NCBI GenBank assembly: GCA_036676985.1
Contig: JAKFBU010000023.1
Location: 192,001-256,000 of the forward strand
Direction of reading: 5' to 3'
From: Candidatus Sericytochromatia bacterium
Lineage (GTDB): Bacteria > Cyanobacteriota > Sericytochromatia > S15B-MN24 > UBA4093
Length of the DNA: 64,000 nucleotides
The notes under the pieces were generated by a model that saw nothing but the letters and a program-made list of their open reading frames with translations, ran no database searches and was not told the DNA's origin. Position numbers and translations under genes: made by a program. This document shows positions 3,240 through 59,637 of the stretch, piece by piece. Position 1 is the first letter of the stretch, and the number at the start of each line of letters is the position of its first letter.

Positions 3240-3857
3240 CTAACGCCAACGGCGTCCGTAGCCGAAGCGGCCGTAACCGAAGCGGCCATAGCCGAAGCGG
3301 CTGAAGCCGTACGGATAGTAGAAGCTGCGATAAGCGTAGTAGGGGGTGTAGTAAGGATAGTAGCCGTAGTTGTAGTAGCTGTAGGGATAATAGGCGTAGG
3401 TGTAGGGATAGTAGGCGTACGGATAGTAGTAGCTACCAACGTTGTAGTACGGATAGTAGAAGTTACGGTAGCTCAAGAAGCGCAACCCACGGCCACGGAA
3501 GCCGAAACCACGCCAGCCGAAGCCACGACCACGCCACTGCTGAGTGCTGCGCTCACCGATCTGCGTCTGGTCGTCCGCCTGGGTTTCCATCTGCTGTATC
3601 TGGTCTGCCGGCAGCTCGACCAGCTGGTCAGCCGTCAGGCGCTGGGGAAGTTCCTGGACCGACAAGGGCGTGCCCAAGTTCTGTTCGACGGTGGCCTGGG
3701 TTGCGAACGTGGCAGCGTCCGCACCGTCGTTCACGGCCGCAATCTGCCGCTGCGTGTCAGGCTGGACCGGGGTCGTCGTCAGCGTCGGGGGCTTCTGGGA
3801 ACAACCGACGGTGGACGCCAGGGCAAGGGCTAGGACTGGAAGGAACCTAGTGTGCAT
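3240..3857 (-). CDS. Lipoprotein with Tyr/Pro-rich and RFGYG-repeat C-terminus, unknown function
   Basis: SD AAAGGAGG before ATG 3857; signal peptide ending TVGC; YYPY repeats and (RFGYG)3 tail. Confidence 0.8.
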   Translation of the reverse strand: MHTRFLPVLALALASTVGCSQKPPTLTTTPVQPDTQRQIAAVNDGADAATFATQATVEQNLGTPLSVQELPQRLTADQLVELPADQIQQMETQADDQTQIGERSTQQWRGRGFGWRGFGFRGRGLRFLSYRNFYYPYYNVGSYYYPYAYYPYTYAYYPYSYYNYGYYPYYTPYYAYRSFYYPYGFSRFGYGRFGYGRFGYGRRWR

Positions 3858-24671: not shown

Positions 24672-25838
24672 TTACAGGATGGGATCGGAGATGAGGGTGT
24701 TGGTCCCGAGCTCGCCCAGGGTGTTGTTGAGGATGACCATCGCGGCCAAGAGCTCGGTGTGGATGTCATAGCGCCAGACCTTGAAGCCCGTGCCCGTGCA
24801 GATCTCGAAGAAGAGGCAGTCGCCCAGGAAGCGCGGGTTGTGGATGGAGGCGTAGCCGCCGAGACCCAGGTTGGGATAGGGGGCCGTGTCGATGAGGCCC
24901 GTCTGGCGATCCAGGATGAGCAGCCGGGACGTGATGCCGTCGCAGACCGTGAAGGCGATGAAGCGGCCGTCGGGGCTGATGGTCACGTGGCCGATGTTGC
25001 TCGGGATGGTCGTGAGGTCGAGGCCGCCCAGGGGCAGCAGCTGGAAGAGGTGCGGGTTGACGACGTCGTACAGGAAGAGCTTGCCGTTCAGGCTGACGAC
25101 GATCCAGCGGCCGTCGGCGCTGATGTCCACGTCGCAGACGGGGTAGTAGAAGGGGTAGCCGGGGTAGTAGTAGCCCGGGAACCCGAGCTGGACCTCCCGC
25201 TCGGCTGCGATCTTGGTGATGGTGCGGCTCTTGGCGAAGAAGGGGCCGTCGGCCTCGTACTTCATGACCACGTTGCCGTAGACGTCGATGTAGACCAGGA
25301 TGCCCGTCTCCGAGATGCGCGGGTGGGCGCCGCAGGGCAGGGCGTCGATGGCGAGGGTGACGCGCTCCTCGGTGATCATGTCGTAGTAGTAGACGCAGCC
25401 CGCGAAGTCGAAGAGCACCCGGCTGTCGCCGTAGAAGGTGGGCTCGATGGCCTGCAGCTGAATGAACGGCAGGCCCACCACGTCCAGCCCCGCCAGGGCT
25501 CCGTTGAGGATGTAGACGTCCTTGATGGCGTCGTCGTAGACAAAGAGGCTGCCGTTACAGAAGGCCTGGGACGTGAAGGCCACGAAGCGCGGGCAGACGG
25601 GCGGCGGCGGCGGGGGCGGGAGCACGGCCGGCGGCGCCGGGACCACGGGCGCCGGACAGGGCTCGGCGAGGGGTTCCGGGGCGGACTTGACCGGTGCGCC
25701 GCCCGCCTTGGCGATGGGCTGGGGCAGGGGCTCGGGAACGGTGGGCGCCGGGGCGTTGGGGGCCTTGGTACAGGCGACCGTGAGCGTCAGGCTGGCCGCA
25801 AGAGCCGTGAGGCCTCGGAAAAGCTGATTCACGCGCAT
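24672..25838 (-). CDS. Lipoprotein with TolB/PD40-like beta-propeller (paralog A)
   Basis: Lipobox TVAC, Pro-rich linker, ISADGRWIV, ISPDGRFIAF; clear similarity to 27394..28659. Confidence 0.8.
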   Translation of the reverse strand: MRVNQLFRGLTALAASLTLTVACTKAPNAPAPTVPEPLPQPIAKAGGAPVKSAPEPLAEPCPAPVVPAPPAVLPPPPPPPVCPRFVAFTSQAFCNGSLFVYDDAIKDVYILNGALAGLDVVGLPFIQLQAIEPTFYGDSRVLFDFAGCVYYYDMITEERVTLAIDALPCGAHPRISETGILVYIDVYGNVVMKYEADGPFFAKSRTITKIAAEREVQLGFPGYYYPGYPFYYPVCDVDISADGRWIVVSLNGKLFLYDVVNPHLFQLLPLGGLDLTTIPSNIGHVTISPDGRFIAFTVCDGITSRLLILDRQTGLIDTAPYPNLGLGGYASIHNPRFLGDCLFFEICTGTGFKVWRYDIHTELLAAMVILNNTLGELGTNTLISDPIL

Positions 25839-27393: not shown

Positions 27394-28659
27394 CTAGGGA
27401 TCGAGGTCGGGGCGCGAGATCAGGACGTCGTCCACGTCCTCGCCGAGTACGTTGTTGAGGATGACCATGGCCCGCAAGGTCTCGTTGAGGATGTCGTAGC
27501 GCCAGACCTTGAAGGTGTTGCCGACGAGGACCTCGAAGAAGAGCGTACGACCGTCGTAGCAGAAGACCGGGTCCAGGATGATCGGCTTGTAGTTCGCGTT
27601 GGTGATCGTGTCGCCCAGGTTCGCGTAGGACACCGCGTCGATGTAGCCCGTCTGACGGTCGAGGACCAGCAGGCGGGAGTCGTTGTTGCCCACCAGGTAG
27701 TCGCCGGTCTGCTGCTGATCGGTGACGGACTTCTTGTTGATCGTGAAGGCGACGAACCGGCCGTCGAAGCTGATGGCCACGTGGCCGATGAAGCCCGGCT
27801 GGCCGCCGAGAGCGTAGCTATCGAGGGGCAAGAGCTGGAACAGGTGCGGGTTGAGCACGTCGTACAGGAAGAGGATGCCGTCCTTGTTCACCACGAGCCA
27901 GCGACCGTCGCCGCTGATGGCGATGTCGTAGATGACGCCCGTCTTGGCGTAGCCGTAGTCGTCGCCCAGGTTGTGCTGGAAGTTGGCCTCGGCCGCGATC
28001 TTCGTCAGCTCGCGGGTCTTGGTGTAGAAGGCGCCGTCCGTCTCCTTGAGGACCACCGTGCCGCGGTGCGAGACGTAGGCCAACAGATGGCCGTCCGCCG
28101 TGACCGTGGCGCGCGGACCGCCGAAGTCCTCCGACTGGCCGTCGAAGGCCACCGTCACGCGCTCCTCGGCCACCATGTCGTAGACGTAGACGAAGTGACC
28201 GAAGCTGAAGAGCACCTTGCCGTCCGCGAACGCGAAGGGATTCAGGGTCTCGAGCGTCGTGCAGCTCGAGGTGCCCTCGACGCCCTTCTGGCTGTCGGTG
28301 ATGTCCGAGACCTCGCTGTTGAGGCCGGCCAGGGCCGCGTTCAGGATGTAGACGTCCTTGAGCGCCTCGTCCCACAGGAAGAGACCGCCCGCCTGATCGC
28401 CGTAGTAGTCGCGGCGGCAGGCCGTGAACGCAATGAAGCGGCAGTCGAGGTTGTAGATCACCGGAGCGCCGGGCTGTGGGCACGGATTCGGGATCTCGGC
28501 GACGCCGCCCACCGGCTTGACGTCACCCGAGTTCTTGACCACCGTCGCAGGGTTCGGCTGGGTGACCGGAGAAGGGGTCGAGGGGGCATTCGTACAACCC
28601 GCGACCGCCGACATGGACACAGTCGCAGCCAACAAGGCCTTCTTGGTCTTGGTCGTCAT
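27394..28659 (-). CDS. Lipoprotein with TolB/PD40-like beta-propeller (paralog B)
   Basis: Lipobox VAGC; shares KDVYILN.ALAGL, NPHLFQLLPL, FKVWRYDI, AMVILNN.LGE with paralog A. Confidence 0.8.
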   Translation of the reverse strand: MTTKTKKALLAATVSMSAVAGCTNAPSTPSPVTQPNPATVVKNSGDVKPVGGVAEIPNPCPQPGAPVIYNLDCRFIAFTACRRDYYGDQAGGLFLWDEALKDVYILNAALAGLNSEVSDITDSQKGVEGTSSCTTLETLNPFAFADGKVLFSFGHFVYVYDMVAEERVTVAFDGQSEDFGGPRATVTADGHLLAYVSHRGTVVLKETDGAFYTKTRELTKIAAEANFQHNLGDDYGYAKTGVIYDIAISGDGRWLVVNKDGILFLYDVLNPHLFQLLPLDSYALGGQPGFIGHVAISFDGRFVAFTINKKSVTDQQQTGDYLVGNNDSRLLVLDRQTGYIDAVSYANLGDTITNANYKPIILDPVFCYDGRTLFFEVLVGNTFKVWRYDILNETLRAMVILNNVLGEDVDDVLISRPDLDP

Positions 28660-28695
28660 GAGCTTTCACCTCTCTGAGCGATTGGGAACCGGGAA

Positions 28696-28711
28696 ACACA
28701 CACACACACAC
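28696..28711. repeat. (AC)8 dinucleotide tract in 5' leader of paralog B
   Basis: ACACACACACACACAC read directly. Confidence 0.9.
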
Positions 28712-28898
28712 TTGGGTGAATGGGGACCTGGACCGGGGCTTCACCCAGCGCCCTCGGGTCCGTTGTTCGGCCTCCTTTCTGCTGAAGTCACGCATGGTGC
28801 CCGCGGGGCCGATTGGCGATACTGCGACGACGAGACGACATATCAGGGGCAGTTGGCATCGCTGCGGGTTGAAACATTTCGCAACAACCGTTTGCTTT

Positions 28899-53152: not shown

Positions 53153-55429
53153 ATGGTCAGAGCGGCCGATAGCACCGGGGGTCCTCGCCCCACGGTCCAG
53201 AACTCACCGGCTCAGGCAGCCTCCCAGCAGCCTGGTCGGACGGAGTCCATCATTGCCGCCGGCCTCACCGAGGCTACGCCCCCGGCCGCCACCACGCCCG
53301 CCAAGCCCAGCACCCCGGCCGACAGCCGCTCTGCCCTGCCCGAGACCATCACGGTCAAGAAGGGCGACTCCCTGAGCATGATCGCCGCCCGCAACCACGT
53401 CAGCCTCGAGCAGCTCAAGGCCCACAACCCCGAGCTGTTCCTGGACGGGCCGGACAAATCCGGCAAGAAGCGCGCGGTCGACGGCCGACTCATCTACCCG
53501 GGCGACACGGTGAAGCTGCGGGCCCCCGATGCCAAGCCCATCGACCCTGCGCGCACCACCACGGCCTCCAACAAGGTCGTCAAGGCCGCCAAGGACTACA
53601 TCGACACGGCCAGCATCCTCGCGCCGGACGCCGCGGGCGGCAAGGGCAAGGAAGTCTCCCAGCGCGTCGTCGACTCCGCGCGCAAGATGCTCGCGCTCAT
53701 TCCGGCGAGCGATCCGGACCGCAAGACCTACGAGCACAAGGTCGAGAAGATCTTAGGGGAGTTCCTGGCCCAGTACCCCACGACCGCTCCGGACGTGCAG
53801 CGGCGCTTCACCGACGCCAGCAACTCCTTCAACCTCGCCCTGCGCGCCTACCAGGACGCCAAGAAGGTGGCCAACGTGCTGCCGACCGAGGACATCCACG
53901 CCTTCCAGCGCGATACCGCCCAGCGGGCCCTGGACGCCTTCACCGAGGCCCATGCCGCCGTGCGTGCGCTCCCGGAGGGCCAGGACCGCGTGCAGGCCCA
54001 GGAACAGCTGGAGATGATGGAATACGCGCTCAGCCAGATGAGCGTGCCCGACGACCAGGTCCAGGCCGCCAAGGAAAAGCGCACCGTCCTGCCCGCGGAC
54101 ATGCCGATCACGGACACCTCGGGCCCCGAGGAGGTCGCCTACAACGCGCCGTTGCGCGGAGCCGAGGGCATCATCGCCGCGGCGGACGTGATGGCGGGCG
54201 GTGAGACCGGCACCCAGCAGGCCATCGGCGCTCTGCCCGGAGCTCCGGCCGCCACCCCTCCTGCGACCCCGGCCCCGGTCGCCAACGCACCGGTCGCACA
54301 GCCCATCGCGCAGCCTCCCGCCGGGACGCAGCAGCCCATCGGGACCATTGGACAGGCGCAGCCCGCCGCCTATCCGCCGGGCTACAACCCGGCCGTGCAG
54401 CCCATGCCCGGCTACCCTGCCGCCGGTCAGCCCGTGGCCGGGTATCCCGTGCCGGGTCAGCCCGTGGCCGGCTATCCCGTGCCGGGTCAACCCGTGGCCG
54501 GCTATCCGGTGCCGGGTCAGCCCTACGTGATGGGTCCGAACGGTCAGCCGATGTATCCGGCAGGCTACGCGCCCGCCGTGCAGATGCCGGCCGCCCAACC
54601 CACCGGTCCCCGGCAGTACGTGCCGGGCCCCGGCGAAATGGCCATGTTCCAGGCCGAGGACGTCAAGCCCACCACGCCCAACTACGGCAACGGCGGCATC
54701 GAGCGCCCCAATCCGACTAACGGCAACAACGGCACGAACGGGACCAACGGCAACAACGGGACGAATGGCACGAACGGGACCAACGGCAACAACGGCACCA
54801 ACGGGACGGACGGCACCAACACCGACGGCCGCCCCCAGAAGGATCCGAACGACCCCAAGGTGCAGCAGATCTGGCAGTACCTCAAGACCGGGGACCACAA
54901 GGCCGTCCGGGACCTGATCAACAACTTCGACCTCTTCTACGCGTCTCTGCCCGAGCAGAAGGCCCTGATGATCAAGATCCTGCTCGACGGCCGGACCAAC
55001 GGCGAGGACCAGGCGGCGATCGCCTCGGTGGTCGACATGGCGCGCCAGCAGGGCGAGTCGGACAAGATGATGCCCGAGCTCGACCGGCTGCTCGGTGGCG
55101 CCGGCCAGGGCATCGCGCGCATGTTCGAGGATCTCAAGAAGGGGGCACGCCAGCAGGTCCTGCAGGCGCTCTTCGGCGATCCGCCGCGCGACGTCACGTT
55201 CAACCCGACCTACTACACCAACCTGGTCGCGTCCCTCGACAAGAAGGACATCCAGTACCTCTGCGAGACCCTGGGCACGACGCCGGGCTCCGCCTGGCTG
55301 AACCGCATCCCCAACCAGGCCAAGCAGGGCATGATCGACAAGCTCAAGAGCTGGTGGCCGTTTAGCGGGGGCCTCAAGCGCCTGCGCGAAGCCCTCGCCT
55401 CGTCCATGGCCACCACGCCGGCCGCCTAG
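53153..55429 (+). CDS. LysM-domain protein with low-complexity repeats
   Basis: AAAGGAG SD; TVKKGDSLSMIA...LIYPGDTVKL; no classical signal peptide. Confidence 0.85.
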   Translation: MVRAADSTGGPRPTVQNSPAQAASQQPGRTESIIAAGLTEATPPAATTPAKPSTPADSRSALPETITVKKGDSLSMIAARNHVSLEQLKAHNPELFLDGPDKSGKKRAVDGRLIYPGDTVKLRAPDAKPIDPARTTTASNKVVKAAKDYIDTASILAPDAAGGKGKEVSQRVVDSARKMLALIPASDPDRKTYEHKVEKILGEFLAQYPTTAPDVQRRFTDASNSFNLALRAYQDAKKVANVLPTEDIHAFQRDTAQRALDAFTEAHAAVRALPEGQDRVQAQEQLEMMEYALSQMSVPDDQVQAAKEKRTVLPADMPITDTSGPEEVAYNAPLRGAEGIIAAADVMAGGETGTQQAIGALPGAPAATPPATPAPVANAPVAQPIAQPPAGTQQPIGTIGQAQPAAYPPGYNPAVQPMPGYPAAGQPVAGYPVPGQPVAGYPVPGQPVAGYPVPGQPYVMGPNGQPMYPAGYAPAVQMPAAQPTGPRQYVPGPGEMAMFQAEDVKPTTPNYGNGGIERPNPTNGNNGTNGTNGNNGTNGTNGTNGNNGTNGTDGTNTDGRPQKDPNDPKVQQIWQYLKTGDHKAVRDLINNFDLFYASLPEQKALMIKILLDGRTNGEDQAAIASVVDMARQQGESDKMMPELDRLLGGAGQGIARMFEDLKKGARQQVLQALFGDPPRDVTFNPTYYTNLVASLDKKDIQYLCETLGTTPGSAWLNRIPNQAKQGMIDKLKSWWPFSGGLKRLREALASSMATTPAA
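54410..54523 (+). repeat. ~4x 30-bp coding repeat GYPVPGQPVA
   Basis: Read directly in DNA and protein. Confidence 0.9.
54719..54820 (+). repeat. Coding NG[TN] tripeptide repeats
   Basis: NGNNGTNGTNGNNGTNGTNGTNGNNGTNGT. Confidence 0.9.
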
Positions 55430-55492
55430 TCGCACCAGGCGCCCCGTTCCCCGGAATTTGATATATTTCGGCAAAAGGGGAATAATATAATC

Positions 55493-55602
55493 ACCAGTTC
55501 TTAGTTCACCTCTCTGAGCTGGAGGGGCCCGTCGTTCACACACCCGGCGGGCCCCACTCTTTCGACCACGGGCGCCGGCTTATCGGCGCCCGTGGCTCAT
55601 TT
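55493..55602 (+). ncRNA. Candidate small regulatory RNA with three hairpins
   Basis: TATAAT at 55486; hairpin 1 exposes UUCACCUCU; 11-bp hairpin 2 has loop UUCACACACC; 12-bp terminal hairpin; no plausible ORF. Confidence 0.6.
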
Positions 55603-55925
55603 CAGGCCCTCCGTGCCGCGCTTAGCGGCCAGTGGCCCGTAACACGCCAAAGCGCCGTTACGTTCCGAGAGATTTCTTTACTATCCTTTGAGGACGGCGC
55701 TTTCGGAAAGGGCGTCCGTGTTTCCGCTCGCTTGTCTGGTGGAACGGGGTGACACACGCAGACTTCCCGGAAGGTTAAGGCCCAAATGGGGTCTACGCGA
55801 CCCTAAGCGCGGTTCGCTTCACAATGTAAGTGATTGTAATCATCTTGGCAGGGAACATTTCGCCTCTATAATCGTCTTATACGATAAATCGACCAATATT
55901 TCGGCGATTACTGGAGGTGTAAGCC

Positions 55926-56252
55926 ATGGAAAAACGGAAGCCCACCAAGACGTCCCGGACCCCCGGCTCGGAGTCGACGCCCACCGTGCGGCGCCGCAAG
56001 AAGGCCGAACCCTCCAACCAGGCCACGTTCCGGCACGGGAGCGAGGTGCAGGAGCTCAACCCGGGACAGATCCACCTGCTCCACGCCCTGGCCCAGGAGT
56101 TTCCCGGCGACCTGCAGGGCAAGATGGAGCCGGACGCGGAGCTCGTGCTCGAAAGCGAGAAGCCGGGCCTGGGCGACTTCTTCCTGTTCAAGCTCAACCA
56201 CCTGCGTGACCAGCAGCAGCGACTCGAAGCGCTCCTGTCCCTCGACGCCTAG
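55926..56252 (+). CDS. Hypothetical protein (108 aa)
   Basis: GGAGG SD, basic N-terminus, high GC3. Confidence 0.7.
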   Translation: MEKRKPTKTSRTPGSESTPTVRRRKKAEPSNQATFRHGSEVQELNPGQIHLLHALAQEFPGDLQGKMEPDAELVLESEKPGLGDFFLFKLNHLRDQQQRLEALLSLDA

Positions 56253-59153: not shown

Positions 59154-59605
59154 GTCAGTGGGACGGGCGATCGCGGGATCTGGAGGACCCCTCCAGGACC
59201 TGAGGAAAGTCCGAGCTCCATAGGGTAGGACGCTGGGTAACGCCCAGTGGGGGAAACCCCGAGGATAGTGCCACAGAAAGATACCGCCCGACGCATTCGT
59301 CGCACCATTGCCGCGCTCCAACGCGTCATGATATGGCCGAACGGCTACCGAACCGAACGCGGCTGTGCAGGTGCCTGGATCCACTAGGTGTCGGGTAAGG
59401 GTGCAAAGGTGGGGTAAGAGCCCACCAGCAGCCGGGTGACCGGCTGGCTAGGTAAACCCCGTCCGGAGCAAGACCAAACAGGGGAAGTTGACGCGACCCG
59501 CCGATTCCCCGGGTTAGGTCGCTCGAGGCGATGGGCAACCATCGTCCCAGATAGATGATCGCCCCCTCCGCGGGGGGACAGAACTCGGCTTACAGGCCCA
59601 CTGAC
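59154..59605 (+). ncRNA. rnpB: RNase P RNA, bacterial type A
   Basis: GAGGAAAGTCC, AGTGCCACAGAAA, GGTAAACCCC, ACAGAACTCGGCTTAC; P1 GTCAGTGGG/CCCACTGAC; promoter TTGCAC-17-TATACT. Confidence 0.96.
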
Positions 59606-59607
59606 AC

Positions 59608-59637
59608 GGGGCGAGACCGCGGTCTCGCCCCTTCTTT
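59608..59637 (+). terminator. rnpB terminator
   Basis: GGGGCGAGACC / GGTCTCGCCCC + TTCTTT. Confidence 0.75.

Follow-up and report, generated by a model that had tools for sequence, protein, structure and literature searches.

What is the non-coding unit at positions 55493 to 55606 of the window, and why do two of its motifs recur, with unchanged order and spacing, across the start region of a lipoprotein gene elsewhere in the window? The window is the whole stretch of 64,000 nucleotides (nt) of a Candidatus Sericytochromatia genome that was analysed. Comparison with related genomes indicates that the unit is very probably a real, undescribed small regulatory RNA (sRNA) gene belonging to a family of siblings. 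On balance, we favour an undescribed family of sibling sRNAs, limited to one taxonomic family, which probably represses the translation of lipoprotein mRNAs.

The unit and its match in a lipoprotein leader

The elements of the unit and of its proposed target, in which the seed mimics an anti-Shine-Dalgarno (anti-SD) sequence, are the following.

55458-55486, plus strand: promoter-like site with the -35 box TTGATA (55458-55463), a 17-nt spacer and the -10 box AATAAT (55481-55486); 10/12 in a consensus scan
55493-55565, plus strand: predicted sRNA body of about 70 nt, with stem-loop 1 (55494-55522) holding the anti-SD seed, a terminator hairpin (55524-55555) and a weak U tail
55505-55519, plus strand: the seed TTCACCTCTCTGAGC, from the sequence match and the family alignment
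55537-55543, plus strand: CACACAC, located in the terminator loop; all 31 aligned copies share CAC.C
55568-55597, plus strand: second G+C-rich hairpin, from the fold; conserved in the same-genus orthologue
27394-28659, minus strand: candidate target, encoding a 421-residue lipoprotein, possibly a beta-propeller, from its open reading frame (ORF) and lipobox; start codon at 28659-28657, product beginning MTTKTKKALLAATVSMSAVAGC
28665-28679, minus strand: proposed target site 1, mRNA GCUCAGAGAGGUGAA, an extended SD sequence ending 5 nt before the AUG, from the complement of the 15-mer
28697-28713, minus strand: proposed target site 2, located after 17 nt (28680-28696), a (GU)n tract of the mRNA complementary to the CACAC loop

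The 15-mer of the seed is followed by 17 nt (55520-55536) and by CACACAC. The same 15-mer at 28665-28679 is again followed by 17 nt and then by a (CA)n tract from 28697, directly upstream of the start codon of the minus-strand gene 27394-28659. The coordinates of both arrangements in the initial annotation, including TATAAT at 55486 and the motifs at 55505-55543, were all exact. The complete 15-mer is found at these two places only in the 4,676,872 bases of the genome; by our own estimate, about 0.005 second copies would be expected from the composition (67% G+C, both strands). With up to two mismatches, the genome gave 18 matches versus none for the reversed pattern. The seed holds the core CACCTCTCTGA, which is common to the whole RNA family, and its segment UCACCUC is part of the 3′ end of the 16S rRNA, GGATCACCTCCTTtct, as read in the same genome (contig C50).

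Folding of 55493-55606 with RNAfold yielded three hairpins at -65.5 kcal/mol (z = -7.8), and none of 200 shuffled sequences was as stable. The segment 55493-55565 alone gave -35.6 kcal/mol (z = -5.2). CACACAC was placed inside the 10-nt loop of an 11-bp stem (55524-55534/55545-55555) with one G·U pair, which confirmed the three hairpins and the looped motif claimed beforehand. The second hairpin (55568-55597) shows paired changes with respect to the same-genus orthologue (ACGGG...CCCGT to GCGGG...CCCGC). It is probably a back-up or bidirectional terminator, and read-through up to this hairpin would extend the predicted transcript to about 110 nt.

A promoter consensus scan of 55300-55900 found two sites against 0.3 expected. 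The TATAAT to which the initial annotation had pointed is indeed present at 55486-55491, but it only overlaps the position-conserved -10 box AATAAT, which goes with TTGATA. In the same-genus orthologue, located after the orthologous LysM-domain gene, TGGAAA-17-CATAAT stands at the equivalent position. The predicted transcript is 97% identical in the two species, with two substitutions in the 66 columns (64 identical) from CACCAG (55492-55497) to CCCCACT. The flanks are much less conserved, with about half of the positions kept in the promoter region; the rise in identity begins exactly at the predicted start, and the adjoining coding DNA is 83-85% identical.

The strand was assessed from the terminator stem of 40 copies. 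On the plus strand, 483 pairs of this stem are Watson-Crick and 26 are G·U, against only nine A·C that the other strand would read as G·U; the single G·U of the window copy is G-C in its orthologue. At least five T within the 10 nt following the stem were present in 11/40 copies on the plus strand and in 0/40 on the other. The same-genus orthologue has a T6 tail, and a variant short form with a T7 tail and an upstream GATAAT box occurs in metagenome contigs. The plus strand is favoured because of the G·U pairs, the T-rich tails, the position of the promoter and the conservation of the transcript. The unit is thus most likely a non-coding plus-strand RNA gene, as the initial annotation had proposed, with its own sigma-70-type promoter and an intrinsic terminator, and we infer that it is transcribed. 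The features of a Rho-independent terminator, a G+C-rich stem and T-rich tails on the plus strand, are present at the level of the family, and a terminator scan called the hairpin of the copy on contig C59.

Three metagenome runs (X7, X9 and X10) contain separate contigs that cover only the core of the sRNA (55506-55554), at a depth about 3-7 times that of the contigs from the flanking genome and with different flanks. We read them, from their sequence, as the short form of a related organism. A search of sequencing runs listed none of RNA; the four runs compared consisted of contigs, probably of DNA, which carry no strand or end information.

Copies, forms and distribution of the family

In this family the seed CACCUCUCUGA precedes a CCCGCCGG stem, whose loop contains CACAC, and a U-rich tail; the unit of the window is the short form. 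The near-matches read CACCTCTCTGA, 5-10 nt, GCCCGCCGG, a loop holding CACAC, CCGGCGGGC and a T-rich tail. Eight of these copies also share about 100 nt upstream; in place of this block the window copy has an A+T-rich promoter region. Covariance model R1 was built from these eight long copies, and model R2 from the core of about 75 nt of 31 copies. The window copy matched R2 with E = 2.2e-14, and positions 96-146 of R1 with E = 6e-7. In the genome, R1 found nine full-length copies and the partial copy of the window, some of them in tandem or 1-2 kb apart. The proposal of an undescribed sRNA repressing lipoprotein translation stands in part, as regards a conserved RNA gene and a matching leader in the sequence data, but it had described a single unit where the genome holds about ten related genes.

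R1 gave 3-20 matches in each of eight of the nine other genomes of the taxonomic family, the matchless genome being 83% complete, and only three weak partial matches in 31 genomes from other families of the class. Similarly, R2 matched eight of these nine genomes; elsewhere in the class, 37 genomes yielded three marginal matches (E 1e-4 to 8e-4). Altogether about 100 family matches are spread over four genera, here called g1 to g4. One R2 match, at position 293784 of contig C26, was rejected as a plain terminator. A broader pattern, CCTCTCTGA...CCGCCG...CGGCGG, proved too loose, being found in at least 117 stretches of named genomes, mostly from unrelated taxa among the matches listed. Of six such loci rescored with R1, only L050, L105 and, weakly, L064 matched. 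The named records with full or partial elements are metagenome-assembled genomes titled 'Stenomitos sp.', perhaps wrongly, and 'Candidatus Sericytochromatia bacterium'.

The pattern C.C--C.CTC of the seed is invariant in 31/31 aligned copies, as is CAC.C of the loop. Pairing in the terminator stem (helix 6 of the family alignment) reaches 98.4%, and its outer pairs show covariation. The single-stranded CACCUCUC, the CACAC loop and 8 bp of the stem are invariant across the four genera, and the seed is predicted to lie partly in a loop in the short form and in the copy on contig C25. Searches of Rfam, at gathering score over the whole window, at E ≤10 over 55400-55700 and at E ≤1 at four loci holding copies, assigned the element to no family; weak matches to anti-hemB, tpke11 and miRNA families were far under their cut-offs. 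No known or housekeeping RNA was thus matched at the unit.

Alignment of the short and long copies revealed an invariant GG, an A at position 2 and a T at position 6 of a hexamer, and a CA seven bases downstream, positions that we read as an extended -10 box and a start site. A sigma-54 reading of TGGCA-N-GC in the long copies was rejected by eye: the G of the would-be -12 GC varies (G/A/C), and the two invariant bases, A and T, match an extended -10 box (positions 2 and 6) followed by a start at CA. In the upstream block, helices 1-5 are 57-85% paired with some covariation, as judged by alifold and pair counts. Single-sequence folds gave z-scores of -2.8 to +1.3 (33 of 38 copies); since they were not significant, a structured RNA was set aside and the block was treated as promoter-upstream DNA. 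A direct repeat AAGC-N6-AAGC in this block hints at a response-regulator site, and the long copies may be controlled by an activator binding there.

Two further repeats were observed. On the minus strand of contig C61, at 53652-53690, a remnant of the family follows directly after a stop codon and consists of a AAGCAGGCAAGCAAC-like piece and a CACAC-loop hairpin with no seed, upstream of a lipoprotein gene. A different repeat of about 85-100 nt follows shortly after the C25 copy (locus L013, about 2116-2217); it is present in more than 20 copies of 77-90% identity in the same-genus genome G001.

Complementarity to lipoprotein leaders

Orthologues or paralogues of the 421-residue lipoprotein are encoded in 10/10 genomes of the taxonomic family. 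Pfam gave only a sub-threshold WD40 match for this protein, and NCBIfam nothing meaningful. The leaders are otherwise diverged, but those of g1, g2 and g4 keep GUGUG and [G/U][C/U]UCAGAGAGGUG, whereas g3 has only a shortened SD form, U(U)GAGAGGUGCU. The g1 leader reads G(GU)n, 19-20 nt, GCUCAGAGAGGUGAA; that of g4 is the same with GAG or GUG after GGU; and that of g2 reads GGGUGUGUG, 16-20 nt, GUUCAGAGAGGUGUG. In g3 only U(U)GAGAGGUGCUUCC is present, and a GUGUG hairpin lies further upstream. The GUGUG tract was found in 6/6 aligned leaders. The length of the (GU)n tract (28697-28713 and its orthologues) differs by genome, roughly from four to eight repeats, and its slippage could tune the proposed loop contact or the structure of the leader.

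The seeds vary together with these leaders. The short-form seed of g1 has UUCACC and its leader GGUGAA; g4 pairs CUCACC with GGUGAG, and g2 pairs CUGAAC with GUUCAG. The g3 seed AGCACCUCUC(GA) faces (UU)GAGAGGUGCU, with G·U at one position. The mean longest perfect complement of the g2 and g3 RNAs was highest with the leaders of their own genus (9.7 and 10.0, respectively, versus 5.8-8.3), and perfect complements between RNAs and leaders reach 15-16 nt. In the window, the duplex of seed and leader was calculated at -31.6 kcal/mol, rank 2 of 5765 crudely called start regions, and that of the loop and (GU)n at -10.5 kcal/mol. Cofolding gave an energy difference (ddG) of -9.3 kcal/mol, compared with -3.1 ± 1.7 for 200 shuffled seeds.

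The two-module pattern had 15 matches in the genome. Nine of them are the RNA genes, and four of the other six are leaders of proteins with a lipobox, a feature with a background of about 10%. Among genes with CAGAGAGG or GAGAGG[U/A]G, the lipobox was enriched with odds ratios of 3.4 and 2.3 (p 0.03 and 0.02). On these data the link to lipoprotein leaders is non-random and conserved, and the earlier proposal of complementarity in two modules to a lipoprotein leader is borne out, the modules being kept across genera with the shortened SD in g3. A second target proposed there, the Tyr-rich gene starting at 3857, was not supported: its mRNA offers only a 7-mer (AGGUGAA) beside an ordinary SD, AAAGGAGGAAAC.

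Two paralogues of the target were noted, at 24675-25814 of the window and at 65189-66220 of contig C6, both on the minus strand (50% and 54% identity, respectively). The C6 paralogue has GUGCUCAGAGAGGUG at its start and a GUGUGUG tract about 70 nt upstream. The paralogue of the window has a CCGG-UGUGUGUGGCA-CCGG hairpin and a different SD, GGAAGGAAGGA.

Six leaders could be aligned collinearly with the reverse complements of seven RNA genes, GTGTG.G and TCAGAGAGG being invariant in 13/13, with an additional similarity, GGG.TTTC, in the spacer. From this alignment, the RNA genes probably arose as inverted copies of a lipoprotein-type leader. Common descent of this kind would explain the equal 17-nt spacing, so that the spacing does not count as independent statistical evidence. 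The initial annotation had argued against chance from 22 matched positions at a fixed distance; the 15-mer proved rare in the whole genome, but the distance is best read as descent.

In the mechanism that we favour, each member of the family would expose two elements: the C/U-rich anti-SD mimic CACCUCUCUGA, in or beside the 5′ stem-loop, and CACAC, in the loop of the near-invariant CCCGCCGG/CCGGCGGG terminator stem. The RNA would pair with 5′ leaders formed of (GU)n, 16-22 nt and [G/U][C/U]UCAGAGAGGUG, the foremost candidate targets being conserved lipoprotein genes, including 27394-28659. Pairing would cover the ribosome-binding site and thereby decrease translation, while the contact between the loop and (GU)n would be a second, possibly initiating, kissing interaction. 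The pairing in vivo, the repression and its direction, and a role in envelope-related physiology are all predicted here from sequence.

Several observations weigh against this reading. The U tail of the window copy is weak (ACUCUUUCG) and the terminator scan made no call there; the long copies have neither a consensus sigma-70 promoter nor a consensus -35 box. Allowing three mismatches in the 15-mer gave no enrichment within the window (4 matches versus 2.18 expected, a number reached by 18 of 100 shuffles). AGAGAGG is a common SD form (49/3770 crudely called genes) and the seed resembles the 16S 3′ end, which makes complementarity to a strong ribosome-binding site cheap; because this SD form is common in the genome, the flanks of the match and the second module are more surprising than its core. 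The family RNAs may thus contact numerous strong ribosome-binding sites. False ORFs abound in the crude ranking of targets, in which the lipoprotein is not the top match, and one of the 200 shuffled seeds gave a better ddG (-11.5 kcal/mol). The enrichment of the lipobox is modest, and the four lipoprotein leaders with both modules include two from paralogues. The co-variation represents few independent events among related genomes, with an own-genus advantage clear only for g2 and g3; the RNAs of g1 and g4 pair about equally with each other's leaders and with their own. Finally, if the RNA genes are inverted copies of leaders, the complementarity could be inherited or homogenised and not selected.

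Other explanations for the element were weighed against these data. That it is a repeated intergenic cassette with a local role, as a terminator (possibly bidirectional) or a stabiliser of 3′ ends, with no role in trans and with the leader match as a relic, appears unlikely. Such a role would suit the 11/38 copies in which a co-oriented upstream ORF ends -21 to +36 nt from the element start, and the 7/38 in which a convergent ORF ends -11 to +12 nt from the element end, both by a crude ORF call. It would also suit the CCGCCGG stems, common terminators in this genome, and the species-variable presence, the C59 locus holding a copy here and a lipoprotein gene in the same-genus genome. However, a plain terminator would not keep CACCUCUC, the CACAC loop and the invariant 8-bp stem over four genera, and neither its own promoter at a conserved position nor a seed changing in step with the leaders would be expected. 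Other loci are syntenic, the C25 copy having its counterpart in the same-genus genome. No terminal inverted repeat was visible by eye in the alignments. For a REP/MITE-like mobile repeat, of which terminal inverted repeats or target duplications and many near-identical copies would be typical, the observations are mixed: the copy number is low and the copies have diverged while keeping their motifs, one locus differs in presence between species, and another is syntenic.

We hold it somewhat less likely still that the functional strand is the minus strand, as a 5′-leader-like module made of a hairpin with a GUGUG loop, a strong SD and, in the long copies, a mini-ORF of 20 codons. Such a module, duplicated from the leader or start region of the lipoprotein genes, could act by being translated, by decoying a factor that binds leaders, or as part of a type-I-toxin-like cassette with the plus strand as antisense partner. 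On this strand, the order is hairpin, UCAGAGAGGUG, 7-20 nt and AUG, and 26 of 38 distinct long copies (for instance locus L010, 1894-2059) have an ATG ORF of exactly 20 codons (M-x-L-S/G-C-H...) that ends at a conserved TGA (TCAC on the plus strand). The identical motif is a real SD at 28665-28679, and the leaders are collinear with the reverse-complemented units. However, the mini-ORF has no coding signature: the G+C contents of its three codon positions are 0.63/0.64/0.64, versus 0.66/0.50/0.90 and 0.60/0.40/0.93 for two real genes of the window, and its entropy is flat over codon positions. As an ordinary gene it was rejected for this lack of a codon-position signal. It is missing in 12/38 copies, including all five of g3, and by our own reading no ORF of this kind exists in the short form, which is conserved in two species. 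The minus strand has no conserved promoter region upstream, the U-tails and G·U pairs point to the plus strand, and the constant 60-nt spacing between CAT and TCAC is equally explicable as promoter geometry.

Sok, Sib and Orz are antisense RNAs of type I toxin-antitoxin loci. As in these loci, the plus-strand RNA of the long copies would be perfectly antisense to the SD region of the mini-ORF, which begins at the RNA start site. The difference is that the mini-ORF lacks coding statistics and hydrophobicity, its peptides being neither hydrophobic nor conserved past residue 6, and that it is absent from the short form and from part of the long copies. The conserved ORF for a hydrophobic peptide expected of a type I system was not found opposite the RNA.

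It is improbable that the RNA is real but binds a protein or the ribosome and not mRNA, titrating a factor that recognizes CACAC or the C/U-rich loop or mimicking the 16S 3′ end, with the leaders unrelated or acting as competing ligands. An invariant stem sequence with a CACAC loop is commoner in protein recognition than in a plain terminator, the 16S 3′ end contains the identical UCACCUC, and many siblings would fit titration; however, conserved leaders contain the exact complement of each of the two conserved segments, equally ordered and similarly spaced. A Pfam search of the genome gave no match to Hfq, which is uninformative, the Hfq of the cyanobacterial control genome being likewise undetected. 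A chance coincidence between a strong ribosome-binding site with a dinucleotide repeat and an ordinary terminator region would suit the common SD-like cores and the lack of enrichment of the loosened pattern in the window, but it is very improbable given a 15-mer present only twice in 4.68 Mb and two modules that recur in leaders and in about 100 family matches across genera.

Host, known systems and proposed origin

The genome encodes no detectable photosystem II reaction centre (Photo_RC) at an estimated completeness of 100%, while the control search detected one in Synechococcus. The octamer GCGATCGC occurs 2729 times versus about 181 expected from base composition, a roughly 15-fold over-representation which we take to be HIP1-like, as in cyanobacteria. 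The organism, which occurs in soil and groundwater metagenomes, is read here as a non-photosynthetic relative of cyanobacteria. The only match of the window at Rfam gathering score was the following.

59155-59608, plus strand: bacterial RNase P RNA, class A (Rfam, 289.6 bits)

At this region the depth of metagenome contigs was far above that of the neighbours, as expected for a conserved RNA gene of many organisms. Closer to the sRNA unit, the same-genus genome conserves CGTTCCGAGAGATTTCTT (about 55661-55678). A near-consensus promoter, TTGGCA-16-TATAAT (55845-55872, plus strand, 11/12 in the scan), precedes an ORF of 108 residues (55926-56252), whose product had no Pfam match.

The initial annotation had suggested a possible analogue of the cyanobacterial Yfr1, but the RNA is not Yfr1 and the comparison did not sustain any kinship. 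Rfam holds a Yfr1 model, and no Yfr family was among the Rfam matches for the window, for 55400-55700 or for the four copy loci at the thresholds given above. As outlined in published accounts, Yfr1 is a single-copy RNA with a perfectly conserved undecamer, ACUCCUCACAC, in an unpaired spacer of 16-20 nt between two stem-loops (PMC2190773), and its validated targets are mRNAs of outer-membrane and cell-wall proteins (PMC6974561). The likeness, as far as these accounts describe it, lies in a length of 54-69 nt made up of a stem-loop at the 5′ end and, at the 3′ end, a G+C-rich hairpin followed by U residues (here about 70 nt and an 11-12-bp hairpin), in an ultraconserved C/U/A-rich motif containing CCUCAC and CACAC, and in a host related to cyanobacteria. 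In contrast, the two stem-loops here are 1 nt apart, with the seed in stem-loop 1 and CACAC in the terminator loop, relatives having the family contain 3-20 matches per genome, and the undecamer is absent from 31/31 aligned family copies. Its DNA form ACTCCTCACAC occurs exactly once in the genome, in an A+T-richer stretch of contig C41 (about 106485), where about 1.6 occurrences would be expected by our own estimate; no Yfr-like Rfam match was found around it, and it is probably due to chance. The resemblance to Yfr1 would thus be one of function and style only, with a C/U-rich motif and envelope targets.

The closest working analogue appears to be LhrC1-5 of Listeria monocytogenes, multicopy sibling sRNAs reported to block the ribosome-binding site of lapB and to be induced by envelope stress via LisRK (PMC4132741). 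As that report outlines, LhrC also has several homologous copies per genome, each with a terminator (here nine long and one short), and exposes, in a 5′ stem-loop or in an unpaired segment, a C/U-rich motif that is the complement of the ribosome-binding region; its terminator loop joins the contact with the target, the targets belong to the cell envelope, and translation initiation is blocked, an effect that is predicted here (PMC4132741). It differs in using one motif (CUCCC/UCCC) at three sites against one G-rich target site (PMC4132741), whereas two motifs would face two leader sites here. There is no sequence relation, induction of LhrC by LisRK is described as proven, and the host here belongs to a high-G+C uncultured lineage. 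Unlike LhrC and Yfr1, the genes of the present family are apparently derived from the target leader, and the long copies have a large conserved upstream block.

CcsR1-4 of Rhodobacter are anti-SD sibling sRNAs, encoded in tandem copies downstream of a gene and carrying CCUCCUCCC loops; they have no homology with the family described here. MicL, an envelope-stress sRNA, is reported to repress the synthesis of the lipoprotein Lpp (PMC4102768). It likewise acts in trans over the start region of an envelope lipoprotein mRNA, as proposed for the present RNAs, and has no homology with them.

Plant microRNA genes arise by inverted duplication of target genes. The likeness is a regulator resembling an inverted copy of its target, with several complementary modules in the same order and spacing; the differences are that the present case is bacterial, that a leader and not a coding region was copied, and that no processing of a hairpin precursor is involved. 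A literature search on the origin of sRNAs by inverted duplication returned papers on plant microRNAs and none on bacterial sRNAs. We therefore put forward only tentatively, as a possibility well short of probable, that this non-photosynthetic sister lineage of the cyanobacteria contains sRNAs born by inverted duplication of the target leader, which co-evolve with it and make two simultaneous contacts, seed with SD and loop CACAC with (GU)n. If true, this would be a bacterial counterpart of the birth of plant microRNA genes, and the upstream control region of about 100 nt would let one envelope signal drive up to 20 copies.

To our knowledge, no regulatory RNA has been described so far for this uncultured lineage; a full-text literature search for Sericytochromatia and small RNA returned nothing on topic as judged by titles and abstracts. 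The family would provide a compact regulator-target pair with natural compensatory variation over four genera, a possible case of a bacterial sRNA born from the leader of its target, and a new covariance model for genome annotation. It may also be a candidate circuit for the post-transcriptional control of envelope lipoproteins in organisms for which metagenomes are the sole source.

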